Below are positions 15,770-64,000 of a stretch of 64,000 nt of DNA, one piece after another. This stretch comes from Eledone cirrhosa. Taxonomy: Eukaryota. The translations under genes were made by a program, and so were the position numbers. Where the stretch lies: positions 46,872,001-46,936,000 of the forward strand of contig OZ024741.1 in NCBI GenBank assembly GCA_964016885.1. Reading direction: 5' to 3'. The notes below the pieces were generated by a model that saw only the letters and a program-made list of their open reading frames with translations, made no database searches and was not told the origin of the DNA. Positions within the stretch are counted from its first letter, which is position 1, and every line of letters starts with the position of its first letter.

Positions 15770-18700
15770 AATGTGCAAGGACCCCATTCAAATCATTACC
15801 TCCTATCTAGCTACCCAACACCCCCCCCCCCGCCCCCACGCACCACCATTGCTATTACGTGGACCAATCATAAGCCAGAGCCCCCACGCATCACCAGTAT
15901 TATTAGGCGGACCAATCAGAAGCCAGAGGCCTATACTATCGCTTGCCTGGTTGCCTTTCAATATATGATGGATGGAATCCTGGAGAGTTGAGGAGAGAGA
16001 GAGAAAAATCTGGACGCTCAGCGACAATGCCAAAGATAAAGACAAATTCACCTCTTGGACGAGAATGCGAGCACTCCTCATTGTTTCGACCGTGGACGGC
16101 TAACATAACCCCATCGCCCCCCGCCCCCCACCCCCAAACGCAATCAAAAACTTCAGAGTTGGTACCATAAATGTAGGCACCCTAAAGGGTCGCGCTAACG
16201 AGGTTGTAGAAATGCTTGAACGTAAGGAGGTCGATGTTTGTTGTATTCAAGAGACCAGGTGGAGGGGTGGGTCTGCTAGGTTCATTGAGGGTAAAAAACG
16301 ATGTTATAAGCTTTTCTGGGTGGGAAACGACGATGGGCTGGGTGGAGTAGGAATCATGGTAGCAGAAAAGTGGGCAGATAAGATAATAGACGTAAATAGA
16401 ATGAACGACAGAATAATTAAAATACGACTTGTCCTCAATAGAACTACGGTGACAGTAATATCTGCGTACGCACCCCAATCCGGACTGCCCGGCACTATAA
16501 AATACGGATTCTATGAGACACTGATGCTAACTACCTCCCAAATATCCGACAGTGACTATATAATTATCGCAGGCGACCTAAATGGTCACGTTGGACAACA
16601 TTGTGACGGCTACGACGAAATCCATGGAGGCTATGGGTTTGGTACTAGAAATGAGGAAGGCTCCAGAATCCTGGAATTCTGTGATGCAAATAACCTAACT
16701 ATCTGTAACACTAACTTCAAAAAACGTGACAATCACCTGATCACCTATAGATCCGGGGAACACACAAGCCAGGTAGATTATATCCTTACCAGAAGACGTG
16801 ACAGAGTGTCTGTTGTAAACACTAAATCCCTCCCCCATGAAGAATGCACCTCCCAACATAGACTGATAATTAGCGACCTCATAGTCAGGACGAGACGTAC
16901 TCGACAGCAGAAGAGGACTATCCTCAGGAGAAAAATATGGAAGCTAAAGGACCCCACAGCCAGGAATAAATTTCAAAGCATATTACTTGATGCTTTCGAC
17001 AGTAAGGAAGAACATTTAGAGTCGGACAATATAGAGGGAGAGTGGGAATTTCTGAAAGCAAACCTGCTGTTGGCGACAGACGAAGTCTGTGGCTGGAGCA
17101 GGCCTGTAGGCAGGAGGAGAGTAACATGGTGGTGGAACAGTAAGGTGGAGGGGTCAATTAAGGCCAAAAAGCAGGCTTGGAAAGTATGGCGGGATGGGGG
17201 AAGTAGAGAAGACTATCAAGTGGCCAGGAGGGAAGCTAGGAGACAAGTGTACTTAGCAAGAAGGGAAGCTGAGGAAAGAAAGTTCAAGCATGTTCTACAA
17301 CGCGATGACCAAAAACGTGAGGTGTTCAGGATTGCCAGGCAATGCGTCAAGGAAAACCGTGATATTGTCGGGGAGAAGTGTGTACTTAACGATGATGGCA
17401 TACTTGCCATCACCGACACTGATAAGAAGGTAGATTGGAAGTGTCACTATGAAAGGCTACTAAATGAGGAGAATAAATGGGAGAAAGACAGTCTCCCCCA
17501 TATCGACCCGATAGAGGGACCAGCAGTGTTAGTCGAGGGGAGTATAATAAGTAAGGCAATCAAGGATATGAAGACGGGTAAGGCGGCTGGGCCTTCGGAA
17601 ATAGTTGCTGAGATGCTGAAGGCATCTGGCACGGTGGGACACACCATGGTCACCCGCATAGTTAACCAAGTCGTACAGAATGGGGTTGTTCCGAAGGACT
17701 GGCATAGCAGCATCATCGTTAACTGTTATAAGGGTAAAGGAGACGCCCTAGATAGGAGTAACTATAGAGGCATTAAATTAATCGACCAGGTCATGAAGGT
17801 CACGGAAAAAGTAATAGCGCAACTAATCAGAGAGAGAATTGACCTAGATGAAATGCAGTTCGGGTTTGTGTCAGGCAAAAGTACCACAGACGCTCTTTTC
17901 ATAGTACGACAACTACAGGAGAAGTACCTAGCTAAAGGTAAACCCCTCTACTTAGCTTTTGTCGACTTGGAGAAAGCCTTCGACAGAGTCCCCCGCTCCA
18001 TTATCTGGTGGGCTCTTAGAAAACTAGGCGTTGACGAATGGCTTGTGAGGGCTATACAAGCCATGTATAAAGAAACAGTCAGCAAGGTTAGAATTAACAA
18101 CGAATATAGTGAAGAGTTTAGCGTAAAAGTTGGCGTCCATCAGGGCTCTGTTCTCAGCCCCCTACTATTTATTATTGCCCTTCAGGCTATAACAGAGGAG
18201 TTCAAGACAGGCTGCCCATGGGAACTCCTATACGCAGACGACCTGACACTCATAGCGGAATCAATGGCCGAGCTAGAGAAGAAATTCCAAACATGGAAGC
18301 ACGGCCTAGAGTCAAAAGGACTTAAAATTAACCTGGCTAAGACCAAAGTACTAGTTTGTAGGAAAGAAAACAAGGCGGCGGTCCCTTCTGGGAAATGGTC
18401 GTGCTCGGTGTGTAGGAAAGGCGTAGGTAGAAACTCCATTTTATGTCCTAAATGCAAAGTATGGGTGCATAAAAGATGTAGTGGGATCACAGGTAAGCTA
18501 ACTAAGAACATAGATTTTACATGTGGCCGGTGTTCTGGTGCAATAAGTAGCAGCAAGTGCCCACAAAATACTAGCTCTTTCAACTGCGCAGAGGGTTCTA
18601 TAGAAATAGTGGACAGCTTCCGTTACCTGGGCGATAAAATCAGCAGTGGGGGAGGGTGCTCTGAAAGTACTGTAGCTAGAGTCAGAACTGGTTGGAAAAA

Positions 18701-19589
18701 GTTCAGAGAGCTTATACCACTATTAGCTGCTAAAGGGTTCTCCCTAAAAATGAAAGGCAGGTTGTACGATGCCTGCATACGAACAGCAATGCTGCATGGC
18801 AGTGAGACCTGGGCATTGTGTGCAGAGGACATACGCAGACTAGAGAGTAACGAAGCTTGCATGCTCCGCTGGATGTGTAGCAGTAATATACGTGAACGGC
18901 AAAGCATAAACGAACTAAGGAAAAAATTAGAGATAAGAGGGATCAGATGTTGTTTACTCGAGAGAAGGCTACGTCGGTATGGACACGTGATGCGCATGAA
19001 AGTCGATAGCTGTATAACAAAGTGCAGGGCAATAAAGATAGACGGTAGTCACGGAATAGGCAGACCTAGAAAAACCTGGGACGAGCTGATAAACTCCGAC
19101 ATCACACACTTACACCTCTCCAAGACAATGTCACTGGACCGAGACCTTTGGCGGTACTCAGTAACAGAGAAGACCCGCCTTACCTAAATATATAATAAAA
19201 CCTACTCCAGCCAGTAGGCATCTCTAACAAAATACACCCCGTCCCACCACCACCACCCCCACCCTATCCACACCACCCCGTTCTATGTAAAGTTATGTTG
19301 GTGCCGCGCCATCGAGGCCGAAACAAATGAGATCGTGTAGGTGTCACGACAAAAAAACACACAGTCCACGCTGTAATGTGGCCGTGTAGGCAACACGGTA
19401 AAAACCTCCCAGACCCACACTGTAAATGTGGTTGGTGTTAGGAAGGGCATCCAACTGTAGAAAACCTGCCAGACAGTCCTATGCGAGCAAGACAATCACT
19501 CTTGCCTCAAGTGGGACTACCCCCGTCCAAACCCATGCAAGCGTGGAACACAGACGTTAAACGTTGATGATGATGATGATGATGATGAT
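15770..19589 (+). mobile_element. RTE-clade LINE, near full length (family A1, copy 1), with (GAT)n tail
   Basis: 5'UTR with repeated CCAAT units, APE+RT ORF, 3'UTR ending GACGTTAAACGTT(GAT)8. The 5' boundary is uncertain and may reach 15421. Confidence 0.93.
16212..19187 (+). CDS. RTE ORF2: APE endonuclease, reverse transcriptase, PHD finger
   Basis: [64 protein letters not shown]. The ancestral start is probably the ATG at 16027, upstream of a poly-C frameshift. Confidence 0.93.
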   Translation: MLERKEVDVCCIQETRWRGGSARFIEGKKRCYKLFWVGNDDGLGGVGIMVAEKWADKIIDVNRMNDRIIKIRLVLNRTTVTVISAYAPQSGLPGTIKYGFYETLMLTTSQISDSDYIIIAGDLNGHVGQHCDGYDEIHGGYGFGTRNEEGSRILEFCDANNLTICNTNFKKRDNHLITYRSGEHTSQVDYILTRRRDRVSVVNTKSLPHEECTSQHRLIISDLIVRTRRTRQQKRTILRRKIWKLKDPTARNKFQSILLDAFDSKEEHLESDNIEGEWEFLKANLLLATDEVCGWSRPVGRRRVTWWWNSKVEGSIKAKKQAWKVWRDGGSREDYQVARREARRQVYLARREAEERKFKHVLQRDDQKREVFRIARQCVKENRDIVGEKCVLNDDGILAITDTDKKVDWKCHYERLLNEENKWEKDSLPHIDPIEGPAVLVEGSIISKAIKDMKTGKAAGPSEIVAEMLKASGTVGHTMVTRIVNQVVQNGVVPKDWHSSIIVNCYKGKGDALDRSNYRGIKLIDQVMKVTEKVIAQLIRERIDLDEMQFGFVSGKSTTDALFIVRQLQEKYLAKGKPLYLAFVDLEKAFDRVPRSIIWWALRKLGVDEWLVRAIQAMYKETVSKVRINNEYSEEFSVKVGVHQGSVLSPLLFIIALQAITEEFKTGCPWELLYADDLTLIAESMAELEKKFQTWKHGLESKGLKINLAKTKVLVCRKENKAAVPSGKWSCSVCRKGVGRNSILCPKCKVWVHKRCSGITGKLTKNIDFTCGRCSGAISSSKCPQNTSSFNCAEGSIEIVDSFRYLGDKISSGGGCSESTVARVRTGWKKFRELIPLLAAKGFSLKMKGRLYDACIRTAMLHGSETWALCAEDIRRLESNEACMLRWMCSSNIRERQSINELRKKLEIRGIRCCLLERRLRRYGHVMRMKVDSCITKCRAIKIDGSHGIGRPRKTWDELINSDITHLHLSKTMSLDRDLWRYSVTEKTRLT

Positions 19590-37307: not shown

Positions 37308-40300
37308 TAAGCCAGAGCCCCCCACCCCCATGCATCACTATTATTATTATTACGCGGACCAAATCATAAGCCAGAGGCCTATACTATCGCTTGCCCTGTT
37401 GCCTTCGATATATGATGGATGGATGGATGGACGGACGGACTGCGGAATCCTGGAGAGTGGAAGGGAGAGAAAAATCTGGACGCTCAGAGCGAAAATGCCA
37501 AAGTTAAAGTCAAATTCACCTCGTGGACGAGAATGCGAGCACTCCTCTTTGTTTCGTCCGCGGATGGCTAACATAACCCTATCTCCTCCCGCCCCCCCAC
37601 CACCCCCACCCTCCAAACGCAACCCAAAACTTCAGAGTTGGTACCATAAATGTAGGCACCCTAAAGGGTCGCGCTAACGAGGTTGTAGAAATGCTTGAAC
37701 GTAAGGAGGTCGATGTTTGTTGTATTCAAGAGACCAGGTGGAGGGGTGGGTCTGCTAGATTCATTGAGGGTAAAAAACGATGTTATAAGCTTTTCTGGGT
37801 GGGAAACGACGATGGGCTGGGTGGAGTAGGAATCATGGTAGCAGAAAAGTGGGCAGATAAGATAATAGACGTAAATAGAGTGAACGACAGAATAATTAAA
37901 ATAAGACTTGTCCTCAATAGAGCTACGGTGACAGTAATATCTGCGTACGCACCCCAATCCGGACTGCCCGGCACTATAAAAGACAGATTCTATGAGACAC
38001 TGTTGCTAACTACCTCCCAAATATCTGACAGTGACTATATAATTATTGCAGGCGACCTAAATGGTCACGTTGGACAACATTGTGACGGCTACGACGAAAT
38101 CCATGGAGGCTATGGGTTTGGTACTAGAAATGAGGAAGGCTCCAGAATCCTGGAATACTGTGATGCAAATAACCTAACTATCTGTAACACTAACTTCAAA
38201 AAACGTGACAATCACCTGATCACCTATAGATCCGGGGAACACACAAGCCAGGTAGATTATATCCTTACCAGAAGACGTGACAGAGTGTCTGTTGTAAACA
38301 CTAAATCCCTCCCCCATGAAGAATGCACCTCCCAACATAGACTGATAATTAGCGACCTCATAGTCAGGACGAGACGTACTCGACAGCAGAAGAGGACTAT
38401 CCTCAGGAGGAAAATATGGAAACTAAAGGACCCCACAGCCAGAAATAAATATCAAAGCATATTACTTGATGCTTTCGACAGTAAGGAAGAGCATCTAGAA
38501 TCGGACAATATAGAGGGACAGTGGGAATTTCTGAAAGCAAACCTGCTGTTGGCGACAGACGAAGTCTGTGGCTGGAGCAGGCCTGTAGGCAGGAGGAGAG
38601 TAACATGGTGGTGGAACAGTAGGGTGGAGGGGTCAATTAAGGCCAAAAAGCAGGCTTGGAAAGTATGGCGGGATGGGGGAAGTAGAGTAGACTATCAAGT
38701 GGCCAGGAGGGAAGCTAGGAGAGAAGTGTACTTAGCAAGAAGGGAAGCTGAGGAAAGAAAGTTCAAGCATGTTCTACAACGCGATGACCAAAAACGTGAG
38801 GTGTTCAGGATTGCCAGGCAATGCGTCAAGGAAAACCGTGATATTGTCGGGGAGAAGTGTGTACTTAACGATGATGGCATACTTGCTATCACCGACACTG
38901 ATAAGAAGGTAGCTTGGAAGTGTCACTATGAAAGGCTACTAAATGAGGAGAATAAATGGGAGAAAGACAGTCTCCCCCATATCGACCCGATAGAGGGACC
39001 AGCAGTGTTAGTCGAGGGGAGTATAATAAGTAAGGCAATCAAGGATATGAAGACTGGTAAGGCGGCTGGGCCTTCGGAAATAGTTGCTGAGATGCTGAAG
39101 GCATCTGGCACGGTGGGACACACCATGGTCACCCGCATAGTTAACCAAGTCGTACAGAATGGGGTTGTTCCGAAGGACTGGCATAGCAGCATCATCGTTA
39201 ACTGTTATAAGGGTAAAGGAGACGCCCTAGATAGGAGTAACTATAGAGGCATTAAATTAATCGACCAGGTCATGAAGGTCACGGAAAAAGTAATAGCGCA
39301 ACTAATCAGAGAGAGAATTGATCTAGATGAAATGCAGTTCGGGTTTGTGTCAGGCAAAAGCACCACAGACGCTCTTTTCATAGTACGACAACTACAGGAG
39401 AAGTACCTAGCTAAAGGTAAACCCCTCTACTTAGCTTTTGTCGACCTGGAGAAAGCCTTCGACAGAGTCCCCCGCTCCATTATCTGGTGGGCTCTTAGAA
39501 AACTAGGCGTTGACGAATGGCTTGTGAGGGCTATACAAGCCATGTATAAAGAAACAGTCAGCAAGGTTAGAATTAACAACGAATATAGTGAAGAGTTTAG
39601 CGTAAAAGTTGGCGTCCATCAGGGCTCTGTTCTCAGCCCCCTACTATTTATTATTGCCCTTCAGGCTATAACAGAGGAGTTCAAGACAGGCTGCCCATGG
39701 GAACTCCTATACGCAGACGACCTGACACTCATAGCGGAATCAATGGCCGAGCTAGAGAAGAAATTCCAAACATGGAAGCACGGCCTAGAGTCAAAAGGAC
39801 TTAAAATTAACCTGGCTAAGACCAAAGTTCTAGTTTGTAGGAAAGAAAACAAGGCGGCGGTCCCTTCTGGGAAATGGTCGTGCTCGGTATGTAGGAAAGG
39901 CGTAGGTAGAAACTCCATCTTATGTCCTAAATGCAAAGTATGGGTGCATAAAAGATGTAGTGGGATCACAGGTAAGCTAACTAAGAACATAGACTTTACA
40001 TGTGGCCGGTGTTCTGGTGCAATAAGTAGCAGCAAGTGCCCACAAAATACTAGCTCTTTCAATTGCGCAGAGGGTTCTATAGAAATAGTGGACAGCTTCC
40101 GTTACCTGGGCGATAAAATCAGCAGTGGGGGAGGGTGCTCTGAAAGTACTGTAGCTGCTAAAGGGTTCTCCCTAAAAATGAAAGGCAGGTTGTACGATGC
40201 CTGCATACGAACAGCAATGTTGCATGGTAGTGAGACCTGGGCATTGTGTGCAGAGGATATACGCAGACTAGAGAGGAACGAAGCTTGCATGCTCCGCTGG

Positions 40301-40981
40301 ATGTGTAACAGTAATATACGTGAACGGCAAAGCATAAACGAACTAAGGAAAAAATTAGAGATAAGAGGGATCAGATGTTGTTTACTCGAGAGAAGGCTGC
40401 GTTGGTATGGACACGTGATGCGCATGAAAGTCGATAGCTGTATTACAAAGTGCAGGGCAATAAAGATAGACGGTAGCCACGGAATAGGCAGACCTAGAAA
40501 AACGATGGGATGAGCTGATAAACTCCGACCTCACACACTTACACCTCTCCAAGACAATGTCACTGGACTGTGACCTTTGGCGGTACTCAGTAACAGAGAA
40601 GACCCGCCTTGCCAGTAGGCATCTCTAACAAAATACACCCCGTCCCGCCACCACCCCCACCCCATCCACACCACCCCGTTCTATGTAAAGTTATGTTGGT
40701 GCCGCGCCATCCAGGCCGAAACAAATGAGATCGTGTAGGTGTCACGACAAAAAAACACACAGTCCACGCTGTAATGTGGCCGTGTAGGCAACACGGTAAA
40801 AACCTCCCAGACCCACACTGTAAATGTGGTTGGTGTTAGGAAGGGCATCAAACTGTAGAAAACCTGCCAGACAGTCCTATGCGAGCAAGACAATCACTCT
40901 TGCCTCAAGTGGGACTACCCCCGTCCAAACCCATGCAAGCGTGGAACACGGACGTTAAACGTTGATGATGATGATGATGAT
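37308..40981 (+). mobile_element. RTE-clade LINE (family A1, copy 2); ORF 37691-40513
   Basis: Highly similar to 15770-19589. In-frame loss of [17 protein letters not shown] between TAGCT microhomologies, terminal frameshift near 40503, (GAT)6 tail. Confidence 0.93.
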
Positions 40982-46585: not shown

Positions 46586-46710
46586 GTGCTTATTATTAAT
46601 ATTTTATTATTATTATTATTCTCTACATTCCTTACATCAAACTAAATATGTCGACAATCTTTTAATAATGTCTTCCTTGTGAAATTTGTGGTCTTGTTTT
46701 GCTTAACTAA

Positions 46711-46773
<63 letters not shown>

Positions 46774-46883
46774 GTATATATATATGTATATATACATGTA
46801 TATATACATATATATATATACATGTATATATACATATATATATATACATGTATATATACATATATATATACATGTATATATAC

Positions 46884-46945
<62 letters not shown>

Positions 46946-46963
46946 GTATATATATATATATAT

Positions 46964-47007
<44 letters not shown>

Positions 47008-47065
47008 ATATATATATATATATACATGTATATATATGTATATATACATGTATATATATATATAT

Positions 47066-47111
<46 letters not shown>

Positions 47112-50100
47112 GTAAATGCAAGAATCATTAAACTCAGACTAGTCCTGAATAAGACAATTACCACAATAATATCAGCTTACGCACCCCAATCGGGGCTGCC
47201 AGACGAACTTAAGGATAGGTTTTACGAGTCCCTAATACACACTACTGCTCTAACAGACGACAAGGACTTCCTAATCATTGCAGGAGATTTTAACGGACAC
47301 GTAGGTAAACACTGCGACGGCTTCAATAGAGTACATGGAGGCCATGGAGTTGGCACAAGGAATGAGGAAGGATTCAGACTTCTAGAATTCTGCGACGCCA
47401 ATGACATGTCGATATGTAACACAAACTTTAAAAAACCCGACAACCACCTGATCACCTATAGATCAGGGGAGCACTCTAGTCAGTTAGATTTTATCCTCAT
47501 CAGAGGACGTGACAGATGGACGGTCGTAAACACAAAAGCCTTCCCTAGTGAGGAATGTACATCCCAACATAGCTTAGTTGTCAGCGACCTCACGGTCAGA
47601 ACTAGACGAGCCCTGAAACAGAGGCCAACCTGGAGAAGAAAGATCTGGAAGCTGAAAGTCCCCTCAACCAGTAACAGATTTAAAGATATTTTACTCAACG
47701 CCTACGACAGTAAAGAAGAACAGATAGAGACATTTAACGTAGAAGAGAACTGGGAGTTCCTAAAAAATAACTTACTAGAGGCGACGGATGAGGTTTGTGG
47801 CTGGAGTAAGACCTCAAGCAGGAGGAGAGTGACTTGGTGGTGGAACAATAAGGTAGATGAAGCAGTCAAGGCCAAGAGACAGGCATGGAAAGAATGGAAG
47901 AACGGGGGGAGCAGGGTACATTACATAGAGACCAAGAGGGAAGCTAGGCGACAAGTATACTTAGCTAGGAGGGAAGCAGAGGATAGAAAATTCAAGCATG
48001 TTTTACAACGTGAGGACCAGAAACAGGAGGTATTCAAGATTGCGAGGCAGTGTGTCAGAGATAGTTGTGATGTCATTGGAGAGAAGTGTATCCGGAATGA
48101 TAAAGCTGAGCTTGCCCTCACAAGTGCTGAGAAGAAAGATGCATGGAAGAGTCATTATGATAGATTACTAAATGAGGAGAATGCATGGGAAGAAGAGACC
48201 CTACCCCACGTAGACCCTATAGAGGGACCAGCAGTACAAGTCAGCGGCAGCGTAGTAAGTAAGGCAATCAGAGATATGAAGATAGGGAAGGCAACCGGTC
48301 CATCGGGTATAGCTGCCGAGATGCTGAAGGCATCTGGGTCTGTAGGTCACACTATAACCACACGTATCGTTAACCAGGTAATACTAGAGGGGGCCATACC
48401 AAAAGATTGGTGCAGTAGCATCATTGTCAACTGCTACAAAGGTAAAGGCGATGCACTAGATAGAGGAAACTATAGAGGTATAAAGTTGATGGACCAGGTC
48501 ATGAAAGTAACAGAAAGAGTTATAGCACAGCTGATTAGGGACCGGGTGAATATAGACGAGATGCAATTTGGGTTTGTTCCAGGGAAAGGCACCACTGATG
48601 CGCTCTTCCTTGTGAGGCAATTACAGGAAAAGTACCTAGCTAAAAGTAAGCCACTCTACTTGGCATTTGTCGACCTTGAGAAAGCCTTTGACAGAGTTCC
48701 ACGTGCAGTAATCTGGTGGGCTCTTAGAAAACTAGGAGTAGATGAATGGCTTGTGAAAGCGGTACAAGCCATGTATAGGGGAGCAGTCAGCAAAGTTAGG
48801 ATTGGCAATGAGTATAGCGAGGAATTTAGCGTACAGGTTGGGGTCCACCAGGGCTCTGTTCTTAGCCCTCTCCTGTTCATCATAGTCCTGCAGGCAATAA
48901 CGGAGGAGTTTAAGACCGGATGCCCATGGGAACTCCTGTATGCTGATGACCTCGCACTCATAGCTGAATCTATGGTAGAACTAGAGAATAAATTCCAAAC
49001 CTGGAAGCAGGGACTAGAGAGAAAGGGCCTCAAAGTCAACATGACAAAGACTAAGGTCCTTATAAGTAGACGAGAAAACAGAACCCAGATCCCCTCAGGG
49101 AAATGGCCTTGCTCAGTATGTAGGAAAGGTGTAGGTAGGAACTCCATTCTTTGCCCCAAATGCAAACAATGGGTGCACAAGAGATGTAGCGGGATCTCAG
49201 GAAGCTTAATTAAGAATGTAGGATTCACATGCAGCAGCTGTGCTGAAACAGCAAGCAAACAGCCACAGGAAACAAGTACCACCAATCTCTGGGAGGGCCC
49301 TGTAGAAACAGTAGACAGCTTCTGCTACCTAGGTGACCGAATTAGCAACGGAGGTGGGTGCTCAGAAAGTACAATAACTAGGGTAAGAACGGGATGGAAG
49401 AAGTTTAGGGAACTACTACCACTGCTAGCTGCAAAAGGCTTCTCCCTCAGAATGAAAGGCAGACTGTATGATGCGTGTATCCGAACAGCGATGTTGCATG
49501 GTAGTGAGACCTGGGCGCTGAAGGTGGAAGACTTACGTAGATTAGAGAGAAACGAAGCCTGCATGCTCCGATGGATGTGTAACAGTAATATACGTGAACG
49601 ACAAAGCATAAATGAATTGAGAGAGAGACTGAGCATAAGAGGAATCAAATGCTGCGTGCAGGAGAGGCGGTTACGCTGGTATGGACATGTGATGCGTATG
49701 AAGGATGACAGCTGCATAAAAAGGTGCAGAGCACTAGAAGTTGATGGAAACCGCGGAGTGGGGAGACCCAAGATGACTTGGGATGAGGTGATAAAAGCCG
49801 ACCTTACCCAACTACACCTCTCAAAGTCAATGACACACGACCGTGACTTCTGGCGTCACGCAGTAATACAGGGTACCCGACCTCCCATGGGTACATGCTG
49901 AAGCATATAAACAATATGCCCCCCCCCCCCCACCGCAAGGTGGTCGTGGAGGTGCCACGGCAAAAAAGCACCCAGCCCACACTGTAAAGTGGACGTGTAG
50001 GCGCCACGAAAAAGCACCCAGCACTCACTGTAAATGAGGTTGGTGTTAGGAAGGGCATCCAGCTGTAGAAATCAAGCCAGATCAGTTCCTGTATGAGCAA

Positions 50101-52971: not shown

Positions 52972-52998
52972 ACATATATATATATACATACATACATG

Positions 52999-55413
52999 TG
53001 TAGTAAGACGCCTTACGCCCCCCCCCCCCTGTCGGATAATGGACCAGGCCTAGTTATCTCCCTCTGGTTGAGAACACTATTTAAGTAAGCAGCAGTATTA
53101 CTTTCTCAGACAAGCCACGGAGACAGCAAACAGCAGACGGCCTTTGTACCACGAAACAGCAGACAGCCTTTGGACCACGAGATCACACAGATGTCAATAC
53201 ACTGAACTCCTATGCCGAAGCCACAAGGATAGTGTTGGCCGAGCACTGGCTCATAACTGATTTCCCTTTACTGGTCCCGTCACATTGGTGACCCAGACAT
53301 GGGCGTTACATTGGTGACCCACGACAATTGTAATACATTGCCTTCATTTCAACTGATCACGTCTATATTGGTATGTTGTTTCATTTGTAATATAACAATA
53401 ATAGACAAAATAAACATCATCCTTATTTACATTGTTGAATAGAACTCTCGTTGTGGTTATTATCTTGTCTACACACACACACCCACTCACTTGTTATAAT
53501 TCTATGGAGTACCTATCCTCTCACTTACGAAAATGGTAAATAGACGAGGGACTTTCCCTCACGTCTATATTGATAAACTATCCAACAAGGATTATTCATT
53601 ACCATACTGGTAACCCCGACTAAAGAATTGTAAGTAGCCTTTTATTCATTTGAACTTAAATATTTCACTGTTATTACCACGTTGCCAACCTTTTCGCAAC
53701 TTACAAAAATACACACAAAAAAAAAGACAGAGAAATAATAATGTGTTTATACGGTATTGACAAAGTATACAAAAAACCAGCCAAAAATTTTTCCAATATG
53801 GTGTTGCTTTTCTCTTCCATTTTGCAATTTTCCCGCCAGGACAGGGACATTTTGAATTGCTTGTGTGTGTTTCATATTTGATCAAGAGAAAAACTGTTTT
53901 TGTGAACATTACTGCCCCGCTGGGGATACACATGCCTTACTTTTTTTCTAAGTGATTTTTAGCCACAGGCTACTATTGTTGATATCCAACGTGGATATAT
54001 TCTAAAACAAACATTTTTTTTTTTTCTTTCTCCTTTTCTCGGGTTATATGATTTGGCTTGCCCGTTGAAGCAACACAAGGGGACAGACGTTGAAGGAAAA
54101 AAATTTTTTTTTTAAAATATATATATGTACTTTGCTATTTCCTAATGTTTTGAATGTCTGTTTCTTTTTGACCTTTGATTTTTTTATTCTATTTTGGGTG
54201 TTTACTTTTCCCTGTATGAGGGAACATTAATTGCTGTTTCTATTTTTTTTTTTAGTCGTTTCACAATGAATACGCCACATTTGCCCGCCTTTACTGGAAA
54301 CCCTAAGCTGTGGTTCGCCCAGCTACAGGCGTATTTTACGGTCTGTAAGACCGAGTCTGACCAGCGCCTCGCTGTCTTGATTAGCGGACTTCCCCCTAAT
54401 TTAACAGATTCGGTCCAAGACCTAATTACAGACCCCCCCCCCCCCCTCTGACTTAATGTATGATTCTTTAAAAGGCGAGATCTTGAGAAGGAACTGTAAA
54501 TCGGTAGAGAGTCGTTTTCGGTCATTGATCGAGGACGAACGACTAGGTGACAGAACCCCTACCGCTTTTCTCCGGCATTTGCGGGAATTGAGTCATTCCC
54601 AAGATCAGGATAGTCCTTTCCTGAAGCAATTGTTCTTCTCTCGCCTACCTCAAGAGGTACAGGCGATCCTAGCCCATATGCTAGAGTTAAACACACTCGA
54701 CCACATTGCTGTCTCTGCCGACAAAATAGTAGAAGTGACGAGAGAGACACTTCGAAGCAAAAGTACGTTGCTTCTTCTTCTCTTCCTCAATCACGCTCAT
54801 CAGCGAGTGATGCGAAGTTGGTCAAAACTATGGAAGCCATGACTCGTCAAATGGCGGAGTTGTGCCAGGAACTCAGGTCTTTTGGACGGCAGAGGAGCCG
54901 CTCACGATCTTATTCAACTCCTCGCCGCCGTAGCCGTTCTAAATCTTCAAATCCATCATATTGTTATTACCATGACAAATATGGTGACAAAGCCCCCCGT
55001 TGTAGGCCTCCTTGTGCTTACAAGGGAAACGACGACCAGAGTCACTAACGGCAGATAGTGCGCTCTGCGAAACATCATCCAACCGCCACTTTTTTATTGA
55101 GGACCTGCTATCAGGTAGAGCCGTTCTGGTTGACACAGGTGCAACTTGTTCAATATGGCCTGTGTGTTGTATAAAGGAGACTCACCCTGAGTCACCTATT
55201 GAGTTGCAGGGAGTAAATTGTTCGCCCATTCGAACCTTCGGACAAATCTCGCTACCTTTGCAGTTCCGTAATCTGCGGCGTGAGTTTAAATGGATTTTTA
55301 CTGTCGATGCCTTGCCATATCCGATTTTAGGCGCGGATTTTCTCCACCATTTTTCATTGACGGTGGACCTCCGTCGTAAATGCCTAATTGATGACATCAC
55401 TGGTTTTTCTGTT
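52999..55413 (+). mobile_element. Ty3/Gypsy LTR retrotransposon (CsRn1-clade-like): 5' LTR, PBS, gag, protease; 3'-truncated
   Basis: LTR starts TGTAGT. tRNA-Trp-like PBS TGGTAACCCCGAC at 53608-53620. Frameshifted gag from 54266 (LPAF..PKLWFAQ, LGDRTP, CHCC motif CYYHDKYGDKAPRCRPPC). -1 slippery site GGGAAAC at 55024-55030. Protease LVDTGA, ILGADFL. Confidence 0.88.
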
Positions 55414-56790
55414 GTTAAAACTAATGTAGGCAAAAAATTCCTAGAGCTCTTAGATAAACATTTCCCTAGAACACATAGATACTATAAGATCTTCAATAGA
55501 AACTGTGTCAAAATTAGCTACTCATGCGGTCCCCCTATTAAATCTTATATCATCAACAAAAAATCACCTAGAGAACATCAAAATTGCTCCTGGAGAGTCA
55601 AAAGTGAATGCCCATTACAAGGTAAATGCAACACCAAAGCCATTGTATATGCGGCTAAAGTGACAACCATCAGCAACAACCAACCAGCTTCCAGTGAACG
55701 ATATGTGGGTATGACACAAGACAAATTCAAAACGCGTTATTACTCACATGTCGCATCCTTCCGACATCCAGAAAAAAGATTCACAACAGTTCTGGCTAGC
55801 AGAATATGGGATTGAAAGACCAAGGTATCCAATATAAATTGGATTGGTCAATTTTGAACCAATCTAAAGAATATGCAAGAGGAACCAGAAAATGCACACT
55901 CTGCATAAATGAAAAATATTGGATTTTACAAAACCTTAAATCACCAAAAACCTGCCTAAATACAAAGACAGAAATGTTCACCAGTTGCCCACACATGAAA
56001 TCACACTTGCTTTCCAGCTCATATAAACTTAACTCACTTTCAGATACTTATCCTCCATAAGCTCTTATTCTTCACTTAAATTATTCTCTCTAAAGACTAC
56101 TCTTTCTGATTTACTTTCATTTTCAACCTTATTATTAATTTTATTTTTATTTTTATTTTTATTTTTACTTCACATCCACTAGTAACCCCCCCCCCCCTTT
56201 ATTCTTTGATTCACTTACCTAATATCTTCACATTCCACATTTACTTCCCTATTTTCTTTACTACCTGATTACACAAGTCACTTGCGTTTTCCACTCCAGA
56301 TATTTTCTGTTATTTCGCAGCCAATTTTATATTTTTATACTATGTATTTATGTGTCTGAGCGTCTTTATGTGTGTATACGTTCTGTATATGTACACGAAC
56401 GCTTCCGCATGTGCGCGTGCGTGCGTGTATATATATGTGTATGTATGTGTGTTTCTTTATATCTGTGTTTTTATATCTACGTTTTTTACATTCTTATTTT
56501 TATGTGTGTGCATGTAAGCGGGTCAATGTACGTGAATATGTATGTGTGTATGTGTATATATATATATACATATTTGCATTTCTTGAGACTTTCCAAATAT
56601 TTCACTGTTTTATATTGCCTTGTCCGACGAACGAATGAGGACGTTTCTTTCGTATTCGTCTTATTCGGGAAACCTCTGGTAATGAGGTAATTATATTGTA
56701 TTGTTTATTATACATTAAATTTTGCTCTGGTACTTACATAGAGCACTCTTCACTCCTATGACTTTTTTCAATTTTCAACGGAACTTCAAT
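55414..56790 (+). mobile_element. 5'-truncated Hydra-like PLE (linker + GIY-YIG + 3' end)
   Basis: KTNVGKKFLELLDKHFP, ECPLQGKC, IVYAA..YVGMT..FKTRY, CTLC, TSCPH; frameshift near 55810. Confidence 0.87.
56614..56691 (+). ncRNA. Hammerhead motif with CCGACGA core variant
   Basis: ATTGCCTTGT-CCGACGA-A-CGAATGAGGACG..CGTCTTATTCG-G-GAAACC-TCT-GGTA-ATGAGGTAAT; 10-bp stem I including G-U pairs. Confidence 0.7.
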
Positions 56791-57103: not shown

Positions 57104-60100
57104 ATGGAGGAGGTTATAGTTCACTTGAAGCATTGTGTAATGAGGTATAAACGTTCAGCTATCTGAAAAGCGCGCCAAGGCCGGCAGCCAAATAAATTTC
57201 CTAAAACGATGCCTGAATAACAACATCATCCCAAAAACTATCAAAAATTTGCACCTACCAACATGCTTCAAATCACCAGGCCTCAAATGATCACTCAGTT
57301 ACATACAAAAATTCTGCCTAAGAAAACTCATACAACACCTACAACAACACATACGGACTATTTCCAGCCTTGTACCACAACTCGCTGAAACCCCAGAACC
57401 TCTGTCCAGAGTCATCTCCGCCGCTATAGACAGGTCATACCACCATCGCCGAGACTACGAGAAAATACGTCTAACGCAAAAATTTCTCAAACTCAGAACG
57501 GCCAACTGTCTTAATAACATCCCAACTCTAAACACCAACACCGAACCTAGCGGCACCCCGACCAACAACACACCTGACGCAAAACACCTCGTCACAGACT
57601 TGACAGGATCCCTCTCCCGAGAGGAATTAGACCTCCTCAGCCTGGGTCCCAAGTTCATATTGAAACAGAGACTGGACGACAGACTATGGCTCGACATGGA
57701 AACAAATTTCTGTCGGGCTGCCTATCAACTAAAATGGATATCGACTCTCGACAACAACACCACGGAATCTATCAAACCCAGATTCCCGATATACCAACTG
57801 GATTGCCCACTCTGTCCACCGCTTGCCAACCGCGAGCTTGAAGAAAAACTCTCGAGGCTAAAACATTCCGTATTTAACATCTTACGGAAACAGAAGAAGA
57901 TAGCCCCAAACCTCTCCAGGACACAACAACTCACCCTGAAGAACCTACGGAATAGGGAACTTATATACTTACCATCCGACAAAGGTAAAGAGTTTTGTGT
58001 CATCTCTCAAGCCACGTACAACAACCTAGCCTTTGAACACCTAAGCGACAATGAATTATACACAGAGATCCCGGACATGACTGCAGCCCAAATCGAAAAA
58101 CAGACCAACTCCATCTGGTTCGATATCTGTAGGAGAAGACAACTCCCGAATAAAGTTAAGCTCAACTACACCACTAGAAATAGCAGACTGCCCACTTTCT
58201 ACCACCTCATCAAGACCCACAAGAATAGCACTAAGACGCAAATAAGACCCATCGTCTCTAGCATAGAAGGACCCCTATACAAAATTTCCTGGCTTCTCTC
58301 CCAGGTCCTCAAGCCTCTACTCTCCACCTTCCCCGGGCATGTCAGTAGCTCCGATGAAGTTATACGTAGACTACACCAACTCCAGCCAGAACAACTTAAA
58401 CTAAATAAATACGCTTTTAGCCTCGACGTTGTCTCCCTCTACACTACTGTCCCCGCTCACCCAGCTGTCGATTTATTGACGGACTGCGTGGTCGCAGAGG
58501 ACATCCACTGCTACGGCCTCCACCCGACGGACATACACCAGCTTTTGTCCTTCACAGTAGACAACACGTACTTCACCTTCCACCACCACACATACAGACA
58601 GACAACAGGATTACCCATGGGATCCAGCCTTTCAGGCCTGCTGGCCATCACCTACATGAACCAGCTAGAATGCCGAGCCCTCAACACCTGCCATTCCCAT
58701 ACCTTCTTCACCTGGCAGAGGTGGGTGTTCAGAAAGTACAATAACTAGGGTAAGAACGGGATGGAAGAAGTTTAGGGAACTACTACCACTGCTAGCTGCA
58801 AAAGGCTTCTCCCTCAGAATGAAAGGCAGACTGTATGATGCGTGTATCCGAACAGCTATGTTGCATGGTAGTGAGACCTGGGCGCTGAAGGTGGAAGACT
58901 TACGTAGATTAGAGAGAAACGAAGCCTGCATGCTCCGATGGATGTGTAACAGTAATATACGTGATCGACAAAACATAAATGAATTGATAGAGAGACTGAG
59001 CATAAGAGGAATCAAATGCTGTGCGCAGGAGAGGCGGTTGCGCTGGTATGGACATGTAATGCGTATGAAGGATGACAGCTGCATAAAAAGGTACAGAGCA
59101 CTAGAAGTTGATGGAAACCGCGGAGTGGGGAGACCCAAGAAGACCTGGGATGAGGTGAGAAAAGCCGACCTTACCCAATTACACCTCTCAAAGTCAATGA
59201 CACACGACCGTGACTTCTGGCGTGACGCAGTAATACAGAGTACCCGACCTCCCACGGGTACAAGCTGAAGCATATAGACAATATGCCCCCACCGCAAGGT
59301 GGTCGTGGAGGTGCCACGGCAAAAAAGCACCCAGCCCACACTGTAAAGTGGACGTGTAGGTGCCACGAAAAAGCACCCAGCACTCACTGTAAATGAGGTT
59401 GGTGTTAGGAAGGGCATCCAGCTGTAGAAATCAAGCCAAATCAGTTCCTGTATGAGCAAGGCATGGTCAGCCGACCAGACACTGCCCACAACAGGACAAC
59501 CCGTCTAACCCATGCTAGCGTGGAAGAACGGACGTAAAACGGTGATGATGATGATGATACTCATCCTCACATCATCCCGTGAGGAGGCAGATAAAATATA
59601 CACAGCATTCTCCAGCATGGATGCTAGTATAAAGTTCAGCATGGAACACCCCGATGACCGCGGATCCCTATCCCTACTGGACTTCCAACTCAGGGTAACA
59701 GAGGAAGGCAACATCCACACCTGCTTCTATAAAAAAGCCGCCAGTTCGTACATTTCAGATCGGCCCTCCCACTCGGTGCCAAGTTCGGATACATAAGGAA
59801 TGAACTGGCACGTATCCGGAACAAATGCACCGACACTAGAGACCGAAACACACACACCACACATTTCCTGGAAGTACTCAAACTGAACGGATACACGACA
59901 TCCACCACAAACCGTGCCAGAAAGAACAGAGGACACCACACCCGAGGCACTAACACTTGCTTCCTGAAGCTCCCACACTTCAGTGAAGAAACAAAAACAG
60001 CCATCCGCAGAGCTATCAGACGAGAGGGACTAGATATCCAACTGGCCCACTCAGGTCCTTCTCTACGCGGACAGCTAACCAAAAGACACTCCACCAGACA

Positions 60101-60192
60101 TGACAACTGCTGCAGACTAGCCAACTGCCCCCTCAACGACACAGACCTATGCCACCAGGCTTACGTCGTATACAGACTAGAGTGTGACAAAT
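57104..60192 (+). mobile_element. Penelope-like element (family D, copy 2), interrupted by an RTE and truncated within the GIY-YIG domain
   Basis: High identity to 25843-27935; ORF 57600-58712 is RT. Confidence 0.9.
58715..59558 (+). mobile_element. 5'-truncated RTE (family A2) nested in the PLE RT gene
   Basis: Matches 49352-50205; (GAT)5 tail. Confidence 0.92.
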
Positions 60193-62732
60193 GAAAGCCA
60201 GGAGGCGCCTGACCGAAAAGGCGAATGAGAGAGTGAGAACTTAAAGTTGTTAGTTTTATAGGGTTCTGACCGGAAGTTACAGAAAGGGTTCTACTTCCTG
60301 TCTAGATGGTGTTAATCTATTGGGGTTGTGAGTGTCACAACAAGGGAGACAACTCCTGCTACATAACCTCCCGCCAGAATTTTAGAATATAAAAATCGAA
60401 TGAAATATGTAGCAAGTTGGCGAGAATGTTGTAACACGCATGAAAATTACGACAAAAGAATGTTTGCAAAAATCAAGGTAGCCAACCGCTCTTGGCCAGA
60501 GAACGACTGGACATCTATCTATCCATCACCCAAAGATACAATGTAATAAAGTAAGAGAAGAGCTCAAAGTTCAAATGTACAAAATATAGTTCACAGGTGT
60601 GCAATCACATGACAGCAGGAAAGAAAGTGTGTTCCAGAGAATGAATGCAGGTGGTTTCTGTTCTGTGGTATATCGTGAAATTTCCAACCTCCGAATGGAT
60701 TTTCTCACAGGGAGAGTGCTGCAAAAATAAATTCTCTGGCTTGTTCTGCTGGTTTTGGTTGTTGGTGAAGCTGTGTTGCTGTTGATGTTGTTGTCTCGCG
60801 GAGTGAGCGTATTCGGTGTTTAAATTCACAGTAAAAAAAATTTTTTCGGAAAAAATGAGTTGCGCAAAGTGCTAGAAATAACAGCCGAAGTTGATGGTCG
60901 ATGTTGAGAATGCGTTGACCTGGAAGGGTCAAGAGGCCAGCGACCAAAGAAATAAGCATTCTGAATAAATGCGCAGTTTTCAACGGCAAATTTACGTGGT
61001 AAATTTTTAAACCGGCAAATAGGAGAATATAGCTTAAGGCTGAAGAATCCTTGGCGAGAAACGTTATCTCTGGCGTGCGGCTATCTCTGTGAGTCGAGAT
61101 ATCTCTGTGAGTTGAGAATTTGTGCTGCCTACACGTGCCAATACAAGGTTAAGTTAGGTTGAAAAAATAATATTTCTAACACGCGAGAAAATGGCGCGAA
61201 AATGATAGTGCAACAGGTCGTTGGCAGCCATTTTGAAAAAATGTGTGTGAAAGTGACAATGATGAAAAATAAAGGCTTCACTTAGCATAATTATTGGTGT
61301 GAACTTTGAAAAAAAACTTGAACGATGAAGAAAACGATGAAAAAAAGGCAATGGTTGAGTTCATCGAAAATAAATGTTCCTGTTGAAATGTTTTTTTAAA
61401 AAAATCAAATTTCTTTTTTTTTTTTAAAGTGTTCGTTGTAAGAAACGAGAAACATATATATATATATATCGTGAAATGCGACAGTTAGTTGATGCGTGAG
61501 AGAAAAAGTCTGTCTGTGCGAAAATTTCACATGTGCGTTTCTTTGACTGCGTATTTTCATAGTTTGTCAATAAAATTTGCTGTGTATTCGTAATGTTACT
61601 CACACAACACCAGATTCTGCTATTTTTTTCTTTTTTCGGGGTCACTTTATAGTTTCCATTTTTTTTATTTTGAATCTCTGGCACAGGATGCAAAGGTTAA
61701 TTCCTTCCACAATCTGGGCTGTCACACCACATGGGACAGAGAAATAGAATTTGCTTTGAGTAAAACAACAAATATTTACTGTAGACTCATTCAAACCCCA
61801 GAAAGTGACGATTTTCTCAGGTGGGGATGTTAATGCCGCTTACACTTATATCACAACAAAGGCTAACACCCAAGAAATCTCTCCAAAGCACTTGATTCAC
61901 TTTATGATTCGATTTGCACAGACTTACATGGTTTTTGATAACTTTGCAGAGTTGCAACAATATGATTTCCTGAGAAATAAATCTAAAGTAAATGCTTCCG
62001 ATTTTTTTCAAATTCAAGAAAGTTCTACCTTCCCTACTCCTACAAGCATAGATTCAAGTTCTAATGATCACAATGGCCTCCTATTTTATATGGTTTCTCT
62101 CTATAAAGTAGAAAACGCCGGAAGTAGCGCAGAGGTATCAGACTACAAACAAACCTTAATCCGAGGATTTAATAACGACCGAATGACACACCCGTATAAA
62201 TATACTCAAGATATGATGCTAAGCGGACCATTATCTAAGATAATCAAAAACGATCAAGTGTTCCAAATCATGTCCGCGATGGACTTTTTCTTGTATGGAC
62301 AGAGCGATCATGAATTGTCACTACTGCGCAGAGGAACAGTGTTAACTAGGTTTGATGGGATGAACATCCTTGAAGTTCTGGATCATTTCCGTAAGACTTC
62401 AAGTTTGACTGTAGAAAATCTAATCTGCGCTATCGTGAATGAGACCGGTGCCACAGAGATGAGAAGGATTATCAAAGCCTTGAATACAGAAGCGTCTTTT
62501 ACAGAAATATTTCCGTATCAGAAGTCTCTGGGATTAGTGAAGAAGTGCGTCTTTTCAGCGAGTGCCTGGCGAAAGCCAGGAGGCGCCTGACCGAAAAGGC
62601 GAATGAGAGAGTGAGAACTTAGTTTTATAGGGTTCTGACCGGAAGTTACAGAAAGGGTTCTACTTCCTGTCTAGATGGTGTTAATCTATTGGGGTTGTGA
62701 GTGTCACAACAAGGGAGGCAATTCCTGCTACA
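60193..62732 (-). mobile_element. Small non-autonomous LTR element; 5' LTR (62732-61648) split by a viral insert, 3' LTR (60363-60193) truncated
   Basis: ~165-bp direct repeats starting TGTAGCAGG on minus. PPT GGCGGGAGG (60375-60367). LTR end CTATA at 61648, followed by tRNA-Trp PBS-like GTGACCCCGA (61645-61636). TATAAAA in both repeats. No gag/pol recognised. Confidence 0.72.
61683..62565 (+). pseudogene. Endogenous viral element: rhabdovirus-like nucleoprotein (N), N-terminal ~290 codons
   Basis: ORF 61805-62590 contains ISPKHLIHFM, IMSAMDFFL..HELSLLRRGTVLTRF and FPYQKSLGLVKKCVFSASA. These are colinear with rhabdovirus N motifs recalled from VSV (IVAAVDMFF..HECASFRYGTIVSRF; YMPYLIDFGLSSKSPYSS). 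In-frame ATG at 61688, with stops at 61745 and 61757. Confidence 0.82.
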
Positions 62733-64000
62733 TGTCCATTGTAATGCAATGAGGTGGCCAGCGGAATCTACCGGTATATGTTGCTCCAATGGAACGGTTA
62801 GATTGCCTTATTTACAAGTCGGTGCCGAACCTTTGAATTCTCTGCTGCTTGGAGACCACCCTGATTCTAAACACTTTTTCAGAAATATAAGAGCCTACAA
62901 TTCGGCTTTCCAAATGACAAGCTTTGGTCATACACCAATAAAAGATGGGAATTATATGCCCACATTTAAAGTGCAAGGCCAAATTTACCATCAAATAGGA
63001 TCACTTATTCCACAAGATGGCAAAGAACACAGTTTTCTCCAGATCTACTTTATGGGCAACGGACCTGAAGAAATTGCACGAAGGGCTTCAGTTGCTAAAG
63101 GAACAACACCTTCTCTTCTGCAGCCCCTTCAATATATGCTTCATTCCATAAACCCGTACATCACCATTTTCAAAACTGCTTTACAACGTAGAGATGCTAA
63201 CAACAATCAATACAAGGTTGTCATTCGAAATGACTGCGCCCCACCAGGACAGCATCAGGGTTGCTTTAATAGACCCCAAACCGATGAAGTTGCGGTGATT
63301 ATAACACGTCCTAATGAGAGCGCTTCAAACCGTGATATTGTTATTGAATGGCAGGACTCGCATCTTCAAAAAATAAATGAACTTCATCCCGCATATGATG
63401 CTCTCCAGTATCCATTGCTGTTCCCCTTTGGCGACGATGGCTACCGCATTGATTTGCAAAAGTGTAATCCTGTAAGTTGAATGCATCTTACACCAGGGAA
63501 AACCATTTCACAAATGGAATTTTATGCATTTAGACTTATGTTTCGCAAAAACGACGTCAACATTCTGCATAGAACACGGATGCTCCTCAATCAATACTGT
63601 GTAGACATATTTGCTAAGATTGACACTGAACGCCTCCAATGGATAAGACATCATCAAAAGGAACTGCGTTCAGAAGAATACGGCAATCTACGTGACGAAG
63701 TAAACCGAAATGATCAAGCTAATGCTTCGGATGTTGGGCTTTCTGTCATTCTCCCATCATCATACACTGGAGGCCCCCGTTACATGCATGAAAAAATGCA
63801 GGATGCTCTGACCTATGTCCGCCATTGTGGCCGTCCTGATCTTTTTATCACCTTTACATGCAATACAAAATGGTTTGACATCCAGTCTCATTTACTTCAT
63901 CCAGAGTGTTTCACATGAAGCTTATAAAAGTGATAGATGTTTTAAAATACGGACAACTTTTTGAACCAGTAAGGTGCTTCATGTACACAGTAGAATGGCA
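62733..64000 (+). mobile_element. Second Helitron Rep-helicase pseudogene fragment (N-terminal region), runs off the window
   Basis: HCNAMRW..CCSNG, FFRNIRAYNSAFQMTSFG, AYDALQYPLLFP.GDDGY, ILPSSYTGGPRYM, GRPDLFITFTCN; stop at 63478-63480. Confidence 0.92.

Follow-up and report, generated by a model that had tools for sequence, protein, structure and literature searches.

A rhabdovirus-derived nucleoprotein fragment replaces part of a non-autonomous LTR retrotransposon in the octopod Eledone cirrhosa

A stretch of 64,000 nucleotides from Eledone cirrhosa (contig OZ024741.1, hereafter the window) carries at positions 61653-62564 (plus strand) a 912-bp insert, which is a rhabdovirus-derived endogenous viral element. 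It holds part of a rhabdovirus-like nucleoprotein (N) gene and lies antisense to a small, non-coding LTR retrotransposon, about 240 bases of which were replaced by the 912 foreign ones. Across the genome at least 7 captures of N sequence by four LTR families were found, shared junctions being counted once. The interest of the finding comes mostly from this genome-wide pattern and not from the window copy, which is probably a neutral, decaying fossil.

Results

The viral insert and its junctions

The open frame at 61760-62590 (plus strand) matched the Pfam family Rhabdo_ncap (PF00945) above the cut-off (E 4.5e-15) and solved rhabdovirus nucleoproteins from the PDB (E 2e-7), which bears out the first-pass annotation of this DNA in its reading of a rhabdovirus-like N antisense to an LTR. 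The insert begins 35 nt before the start codon (61688), has a frameshift in its 5' coding end and is open in a single frame from 61760 onward, while the 3' third of the N gene is missing. The match to the element stops at LTR nt 177 (62565) and resumes at about nt 418 (61652); LTR nt 178-375, the poly(A) signal ATTAAA, the true primer binding site (PBS) and the spacer are gone. Hence, element sequence was replaced, and the insertion was not a clean one. The 35-nt leader showed no significant resemblance to related viral untranslated regions (UTRs) in any of 4 shuffle tests (p 0.08-0.84), for which the test string was one base too long at its 3' end.

The motifs named in the first-pass annotation (TGTAG, TATAAAA, TCATTC, the hairpin, AATAAA, and CTATA at 61652-61648 with the PBS-like GTGACCCCGA) had all been placed correctly. 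From them a cassette had been drawn, in which 883 nt of N between the TATA box and the poly(A) signal of one LTR formed a self-contained unit, and the removal of which would restore an LTR of ~200 bp. The upstream half of this layout stands: A non-retroviral viral insert is tied to an LTR element and follows immediately on a TATA box that all 29 copies keep. The downstream half does not. The foreign segment measures 912 nt instead of 883 nt, intact LTRs are ~375 bp long, and 28 other copies differ past the junction. All 28 copies besides the 3' LTR of the window continue with GCCAGGAGT or GCCAGGAAT and ~200 more LTR bases. None of the 29 copies runs on into 61682-61648, the comparison that had been set beforehand, and none of the 29 loci matches 61682-61664; GCCAGAGATTCAAAATAAA was absent from all of them, the best match having 6-9 mismatches in 19. 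The AATAAA (61664-61669, minus strand) belongs to the insert, 19-24 nt upstream of the N start codon, and is not LTR-derived; by its position it is likely the antisense of the viral 5' UTR. With the ATTAAA of the LTR deleted, and the 3' LTR ending ahead of its own, neither an LTR-derived poly(A) signal nor U5 lies downstream of the insert, and the cassette as originally described does not exist. A clean insertion into a ~200-bp LTR with GCCAG as target duplication was ruled out as well, as no LTR sequence follows the GCCAG repeat; the second GCCAG falls inside the insert, within the 35 nt upstream of the start codon.

The carrier element and its surroundings

The carrier is a non-autonomous LTR retrotransposon: Paired LTRs, 4-bp target duplications, a PBS and a purine tract were all found. 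From the 4-bp duplication, a PBS for tRNA-Trp and the gag-protease remnants of sister families we infer that it is of Gypsy type. No pol was found in the family copies examined, the one internal ORF tested had no Pfam match, and no reverse transcriptase was found for this LTR family. Read on the minus strand, the window copy starts with a 5' LTR remnant (62565-62732, nt 1-177 of the ~375-bp LTR, with TGTAG at 62732), continues with a non-coding interior of ~1.29 kb (60364-61652, 97% identity to the closest copy examined, L088), and ends with a 3' LTR remnant (60193-60363, nt 1-171), which stops 6 nt short of the equivalent of the viral junction. The purine tract GGCGGGAGG precedes the 3' LTR at 60375-60367. 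The two long terminal direct repeats (62732-62565 and 60363-60193) differ by 2 substitutions in 162 nt and a 9-bp gap; family pairs elsewhere lie 1.4-1.9 kb apart. This gap reflects the 9-bp deletion that the first-pass annotation had correctly noticed against the second LTR copy at 60363-60193. It lies downstream of the TATA box in the 5' LTR and is private to this LTR compared to 29 other loci.

TATAAAA (62623-62629, minus strand), kept in 29/29 LTR loci, presumably serves as promoter, and the Inr-like TCATTC (62601-62606, minus strand) is a candidate start site. Their spacing is 25 nt in the window copy versus 34 nt in 29/29 other loci. The hairpin CCTGGC-TTTC-GCCAGG (62565-62580, minus strand; core CTGGC-TTTC-GCCAG at 62579-62566) is found at the upstream insert junction, its stem being 8 bp long in intact LTRs. 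Folding of 62540-62605 gave a z-score of -2.3, but by pairing other than this hairpin. The hairpin looks prone to rearrangement, with the loop inverted in L030, the 3' LTR of the window cut inside it and the viral junction at its base.

For comparison, a genome search with the LTR yielded 1607 candidates, of which 40 were scored and the best 30 fetched; the 29 loci are these 30 minus the query, and the truncated 3' LTR of the window is one of them. The intact family LTR reaches over ~375 bp from TGTAG to TATA, with the poly(A) signal ATTAAA at LTR nt 287-313 in 26/29 loci and no AATAAA within the LTR. Clear 4-bp target duplications were observed at 7 of the 15 family insertions inspected, the others being located in TA repeats, truncated or ambiguous. 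An LTR ending at GCCA (TG...CA, ~175 bp) was also considered and ruled out; copies extend to ~375 bp, and target duplications flank that end.

The family PBS is complementary to the 3' end of host tRNA-Trp(CCA), the primer tRNA of at least two of these LTR families. Tandem gene arrays for this tRNA were detected with ARAGORN at L143 and L144, and no tRNA was detected by it at the first 4 pattern loci. Among 29 copies picked by internal sequence, the junction of LTR end and PBS is duplicated ~40 nt further inside the element in 23, and the LTR end joins the duplicate PBS copy directly in 5. The CTATA with its PBS-like site, taken earlier for the end of the LTR, is indeed present, but it is this duplicate junction inside the element (CTATA AA GTGACCCCGA, 61636-61652, minus strand) and not the true LTR end. 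It is 3 nt shorter than in sister copies; thus, the window copy keeps a damaged duplicate PBS only, the true tRNA-Trp PBS being lost.

The target of the element was a Helitron, a remnant of which (62733-64000, plus strand) differs by 1.3% from the nearest of 8 copies compared. Since the host Helitron is only 1.3% diverged, the insertion is young on a relative scale. On the other side, a Penelope-like element (57339-60193, plus strand), interrupted by a LINE fragment at 58718-59558, ends at the start of its GIY-YIG region and abuts the 3' LTR. The left flank was lost there, so neither a target duplication nor a normal 3' LTR is visible at the window copy. The upstream part of the Helitron, a second N piece and a continuation of the 3' LTR were not found elsewhere in the 64-kb window. 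The stretch 52998-55420 holds a second family of Gypsy type, recognized by its LTR, PBS and remnants of gag and protease; a further repeat truncates it, and it is related to the LTR beside L065 and L074. Long LINE ORFs with endonuclease and reverse transcriptase were observed at 16104-19187, 37577-40513 and 46707-49901, with a PHD-finger-like match after the reverse transcriptase domain.

Captured N sequences across the genome

A genome search with the window N protein gave 21 matches including itself, with 45-77% identity over the matched pieces and 54-63% for the longer ones. As all other matches are only 45-77% identical, the window insert is single-copy in this assembly search. Together with one locus from the family search, the 21 matches represent nine independent N loci, 7 of which abut Gypsy-type sequence. 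In 10-kb views, Gypsy-type LTR sequence of three other families adjoins 6 of the 8 other loci; the window LTR family was not matched at any of them. Sister loci lie at C4:337.14 Mb, C5:74.85 Mb and C2:55.89 Mb. Five captures are antisense to their carrier (window; L067 with L071; L068; L065 with L074; the L069/L070 tandem array) and two are sense (L072, L073), while L075 and L113 were left unoriented. This 5:2 ratio shows no significant excess over 50:50 (p 0.45). It would be unlikely under the same-polarity rate of Aedes, 543/614 (p 3.5e-4), a comparison of different measures at small n.

The layout of the window copy, a short 5' LTR followed by antisense N and the interior, recurs at L067, L071 and L068. 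There the 3' LTR is complete, and separate 4-bp target duplications flank the three copies (TATA, GAAC and CGCT, respectively). Altogether, three capture junctions (window, L067/L071, L068) join a shortened 5' LTR, ending at nt 132-181, straight to antisense N. L067 (4188-6573) and L071 (4133-5956) are the same chimera on different contigs, with the LTR junction at nt 132, both junctions in common and 2.7% divergence between the inserts; a junction search found no third copy. Their N is nearly full length, with a 393-codon open frame in L067. At the junction of this pair, the LTR has the 6 nt CAAATC in common with the viral 3' UTR, the latter taken from L068. In L068 (3816-6020) the LTR stub reaches nt 181, and the N gene end with 9 A's joins an A-run of the LTR; the CGCT duplication encloses this copy. 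In its simplest reading, the pair L067/L071 suggests that this chimera was transcribed and then re-transposed, for which germ-line RNA antisense to N would have been required; alternatively, gene conversion may have acted between copies already in place. For antisense expression, L067 and L071 are more promising candidates than the copy in the window.

L065 (6060-8456) and L074 (4081-7700) have 2.2 kb in common but different flanks; next to a single LTR they contain N, then a gene-end/gene-start signal and a P-like ORF. L065 lies ~117 kb away from the window insert and has on its two sides a 102-bp direct duplication, which an integrase would not usually produce. In L069 (5400-10000) and L070 (1-5700) five tandem 1.8-kb units were observed, every one of which combines a fragment of antisense N with sequence from the interior of an LTR element. 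This array looks as if templates had been switched repeatedly or the unit had been amplified in tandem later. No A-to-G editing bias was seen between sister inserts.

The viral lineage

A word-based protein search found nothing, while HMMER with the sister copy L032 gave matches. The best public relatives of L032 were proteins of Octopus bimaculoides (A0A0L8FVJ3) and Argonauta hians (GAB1603531.1, GAB1610042.1), which belong to the same N lineage as the window insert and are automatic annotations only. Named rhabdovirus N proteins were also among the matches, with at most about 25-32% identity to L032. In a tree of 20 rows, from which five distant rows and two short fragments of the C-terminus had been omitted, the 9 octopod rows formed one side of a branch with an SH-aLRT support of 100. 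At least three N lineages are present in the genome. Cephalopod rhabdoviruses have been reported, according to the title of Rey-Campos (2023). Besides N, a long broken insert of a mononegavirus L gene (Pfam PF00946, E 5e-146) was observed at L114 (7997-10000) and L115 (1-2829), and shorter L fragments on C23, C3 and C27; none of these is linked to the window N insert.

Discussion

How the N fragment was captured

We consider it probable that the N piece was captured by template switching of a borrowed reverse transcriptase onto viral RNA and back. This account is favored by the replacement structure, by the LTR pairs, 4-bp target duplications and tRNA-Trp PBS of the family, by the recurrence of the same layout in two other LTR families, and by the A-run junction of L068. 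Within it, we give about two thirds of the weight to a route via plus-strand DNA. In this route, plus-strand DNA primed at the purine tract would copy U3 and part of R up to nt 177, pause at the LTR hairpin and jump onto naked N mRNA. In rhabdoviruses, N encapsidates the genomic RNA but not the mRNA. Copying of the N mRNA towards its 5' end would yield the antisense orientation. Once the template was exhausted in the 5' UTR, the strand would re-anneal to the minus-strand DNA beside the primer site, the usual landing zone of the second strand transfer. The expected product would have a short 5' LTR, the antisense insert, internal sequence and a normal 3' LTR. Integrase would then have placed the chimera into the young Helitron, and a later deletion likely took the far end of the 3' LTR together with the left flank. 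The poly(A)-like junction of L068, the 6-nt match of L067/L071 and the end of the window insert in leader sequence near the primer site support this plus-strand mRNA route. In two related N copies a TTTAT.G occurs close to the gene start, and its position agrees to within 1 nt with that of the element's TTTATAG at the window insert, a likeness noticed post hoc. RNA-virus inserts are mostly mRNA-derived (PMC2987831), and a Gypsy-mediated copy-choice capture of rhabdovirus sequence has been proposed in Aedes (10.1101/127498, PMC5497376).

Several findings count against reverse-transcriptase capture. The closest N copies have only 54-63% amino-acid identity and are no source virus from which microhomology at the window junction could be read; the 3' LTR ends before the junction point, the left flank is gone, and 2 of the 7 captures are sense. 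In L065 and L074 the captured sequence runs past the end of the N gene into the following ORF, so that their template exceeded a single mRNA in length. The same structure as by the plus-strand route would also result if the minus strand had switched onto genomic-sense RNA; priming at the duplicate PBS is another alternative, for which the insert would be expected in both LTRs.

An unlikely origin is capture after integration, by which an element already in place would have broken at the LTR hairpin and the double-strand break been repaired with viral cDNA from any host reverse transcriptase, 240 bp being lost. It agrees with the rearrangements of the hairpin region (3' LTR cut, L030 loop inverted) and with at least one other deletion at the locus, and ectopic recombination has been proposed for mosquito inserts (PMC5497376). 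It leaves unexplained, however, why 7/9 N loci lie against Gypsy-type sequence, the three 5' LTR joins at nt 132-181 and the poly(A) junction of L068; moreover, the window copy shows no poly(A) tail or long target duplication, and the GCCAG repeat is not a target duplication. An assembly chimera or contamination with viral RNA is highly improbable despite the very repetitive region and the origin of the three public runs in one sample, maybe the source of the assembly, as in 3/3 runs a single contig of 979-980 nt spans 61616-62594 and crosses both junctions, with 37 nt of element sequence past the left one and 30 nt past the right one, the latter 1 nt below the 31-nt bar of the search tool. 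The N gene moreover carries a frameshift and a truncation, and clean target duplications flank the sister loci. In 2/3 runs the contig differs from the assembly by one base within the insert.

Antisense RNA and antiviral defense

With the TATA box directly upstream and N in antisense, LTR-driven RNA would be antisense to N; from the window copy, any such RNA would lack an LTR terminator. That the chimera is a retained antiviral unit, promoted by the LTR, ended at a chance AATAAA in the insert and processed to antisense piRNAs, appears very unlikely. The conserved TATA box does point into antisense N, and AATAAA lies close to the end of the insert (found within the last 40 nt in 3% of 2000 dinucleotide shuffles, and somewhere in the insert in 50%). 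Sister chimeras appear to have been transcribed, as judged from the target duplications of L067/L071. Molluscs are reported to express PIWI and piRNAs broadly (PMC6128900), and Trochozoa to be without the Dicer-2/siRNA route (PMC11114477). Against this stand the loss of the LTR's own poly(A) signal, the AATAAA being foreign to the LTR, and the private 9-bp promoter deletion; the insert is single-copy, young and embedded in repeat debris, and the 5:2 split of orientations does not differ from 50:50 (p 0.45). By their titles, two papers describe such inserts as dispensable for protection or for ping-pong piRNAs (PMC12112416, PMC7527727). In Aedes ovaries, restriction by such an insert is reported (PMC7522710), and heritable antisense viral piRNAs outside arthropods were already described in mammals (PMC4574747).

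A wider idea concerns octopod Gypsy-type elements as a group. The plus-strand switching route may place antisense N behind their own promoter, and chimeras transcribed in the germ line might then spread as a dispersed, self-copying source of antisense RNA or piRNA in a lineage lacking Dicer-2. In this view the window copy would belong to the group, its promoter deletion possibly having weakened it. We regard this as unlikely.

Relation to known systems and significance

The Ty3/Gypsy-associated inserts of Aedes are the closest parallel, with rhabdovirus N, a Gypsy-type carrier and a proposed copy-choice capture likewise reported (10.1101/127498, PMC5497376, PMC7161354). There, 543/614 nearest LTRs share the polarity of the insert, while 5/7 octopod captures are antisense, counts that were not measured alike. 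Antisense RNA arises in Aedes from a cluster promoter and piRNAs were shown, whereas three octopod captures lie directly behind a 5' LTR stub and piRNAs are candidates only. In mammals, EBLN-type inserts also brought mononegavirus N mRNA into a non-arthropod germ line, with antisense RNA proposed as inherited immunity. They are described as processed pseudogenes of LINE type, which carry poly(A) tails and are flanked by target duplications (PMC2987831), in contrast to the replacement inside an LTR element in the window, where N is 3'-truncated, no poly(A) tail was found and the flanks are deleted and not duplicated.

In the literature searched, which covered few subscription journals, no description of octopus or mollusc rhabdovirus inserts, of plus-strand capture or of a promoter-proximal antisense layout was found. 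In the mouse, IAP-LCMV recombination between retrotransposon and virus (Geuking et al. 2009) was reportedly somatic and experimental. It is likewise reported to involve the reverse transcriptase of an LTR element joining non-retroviral RNA virus sequence to element sequence; unlike it, the octopod captures are fixed in the germ line, extend across four LTR families, and in one case were apparently re-transposed.

So far, LTR capture of RNA-virus sequence was mostly inferred from proximity in repeat-dense mosquito clusters. Several young octopod chimeras keep base-level junctions, LTRs and target duplications, which makes the capture route readable and testable. The captures bear witness to repeated octopod infections with a rhabdovirus lineage without a close named member. 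Should piRNAs arise from the antisense chimeras, a candidate for inherited antiviral defense would be at hand in molluscs; if none arise, the captures would still provide a useful paleovirology record.
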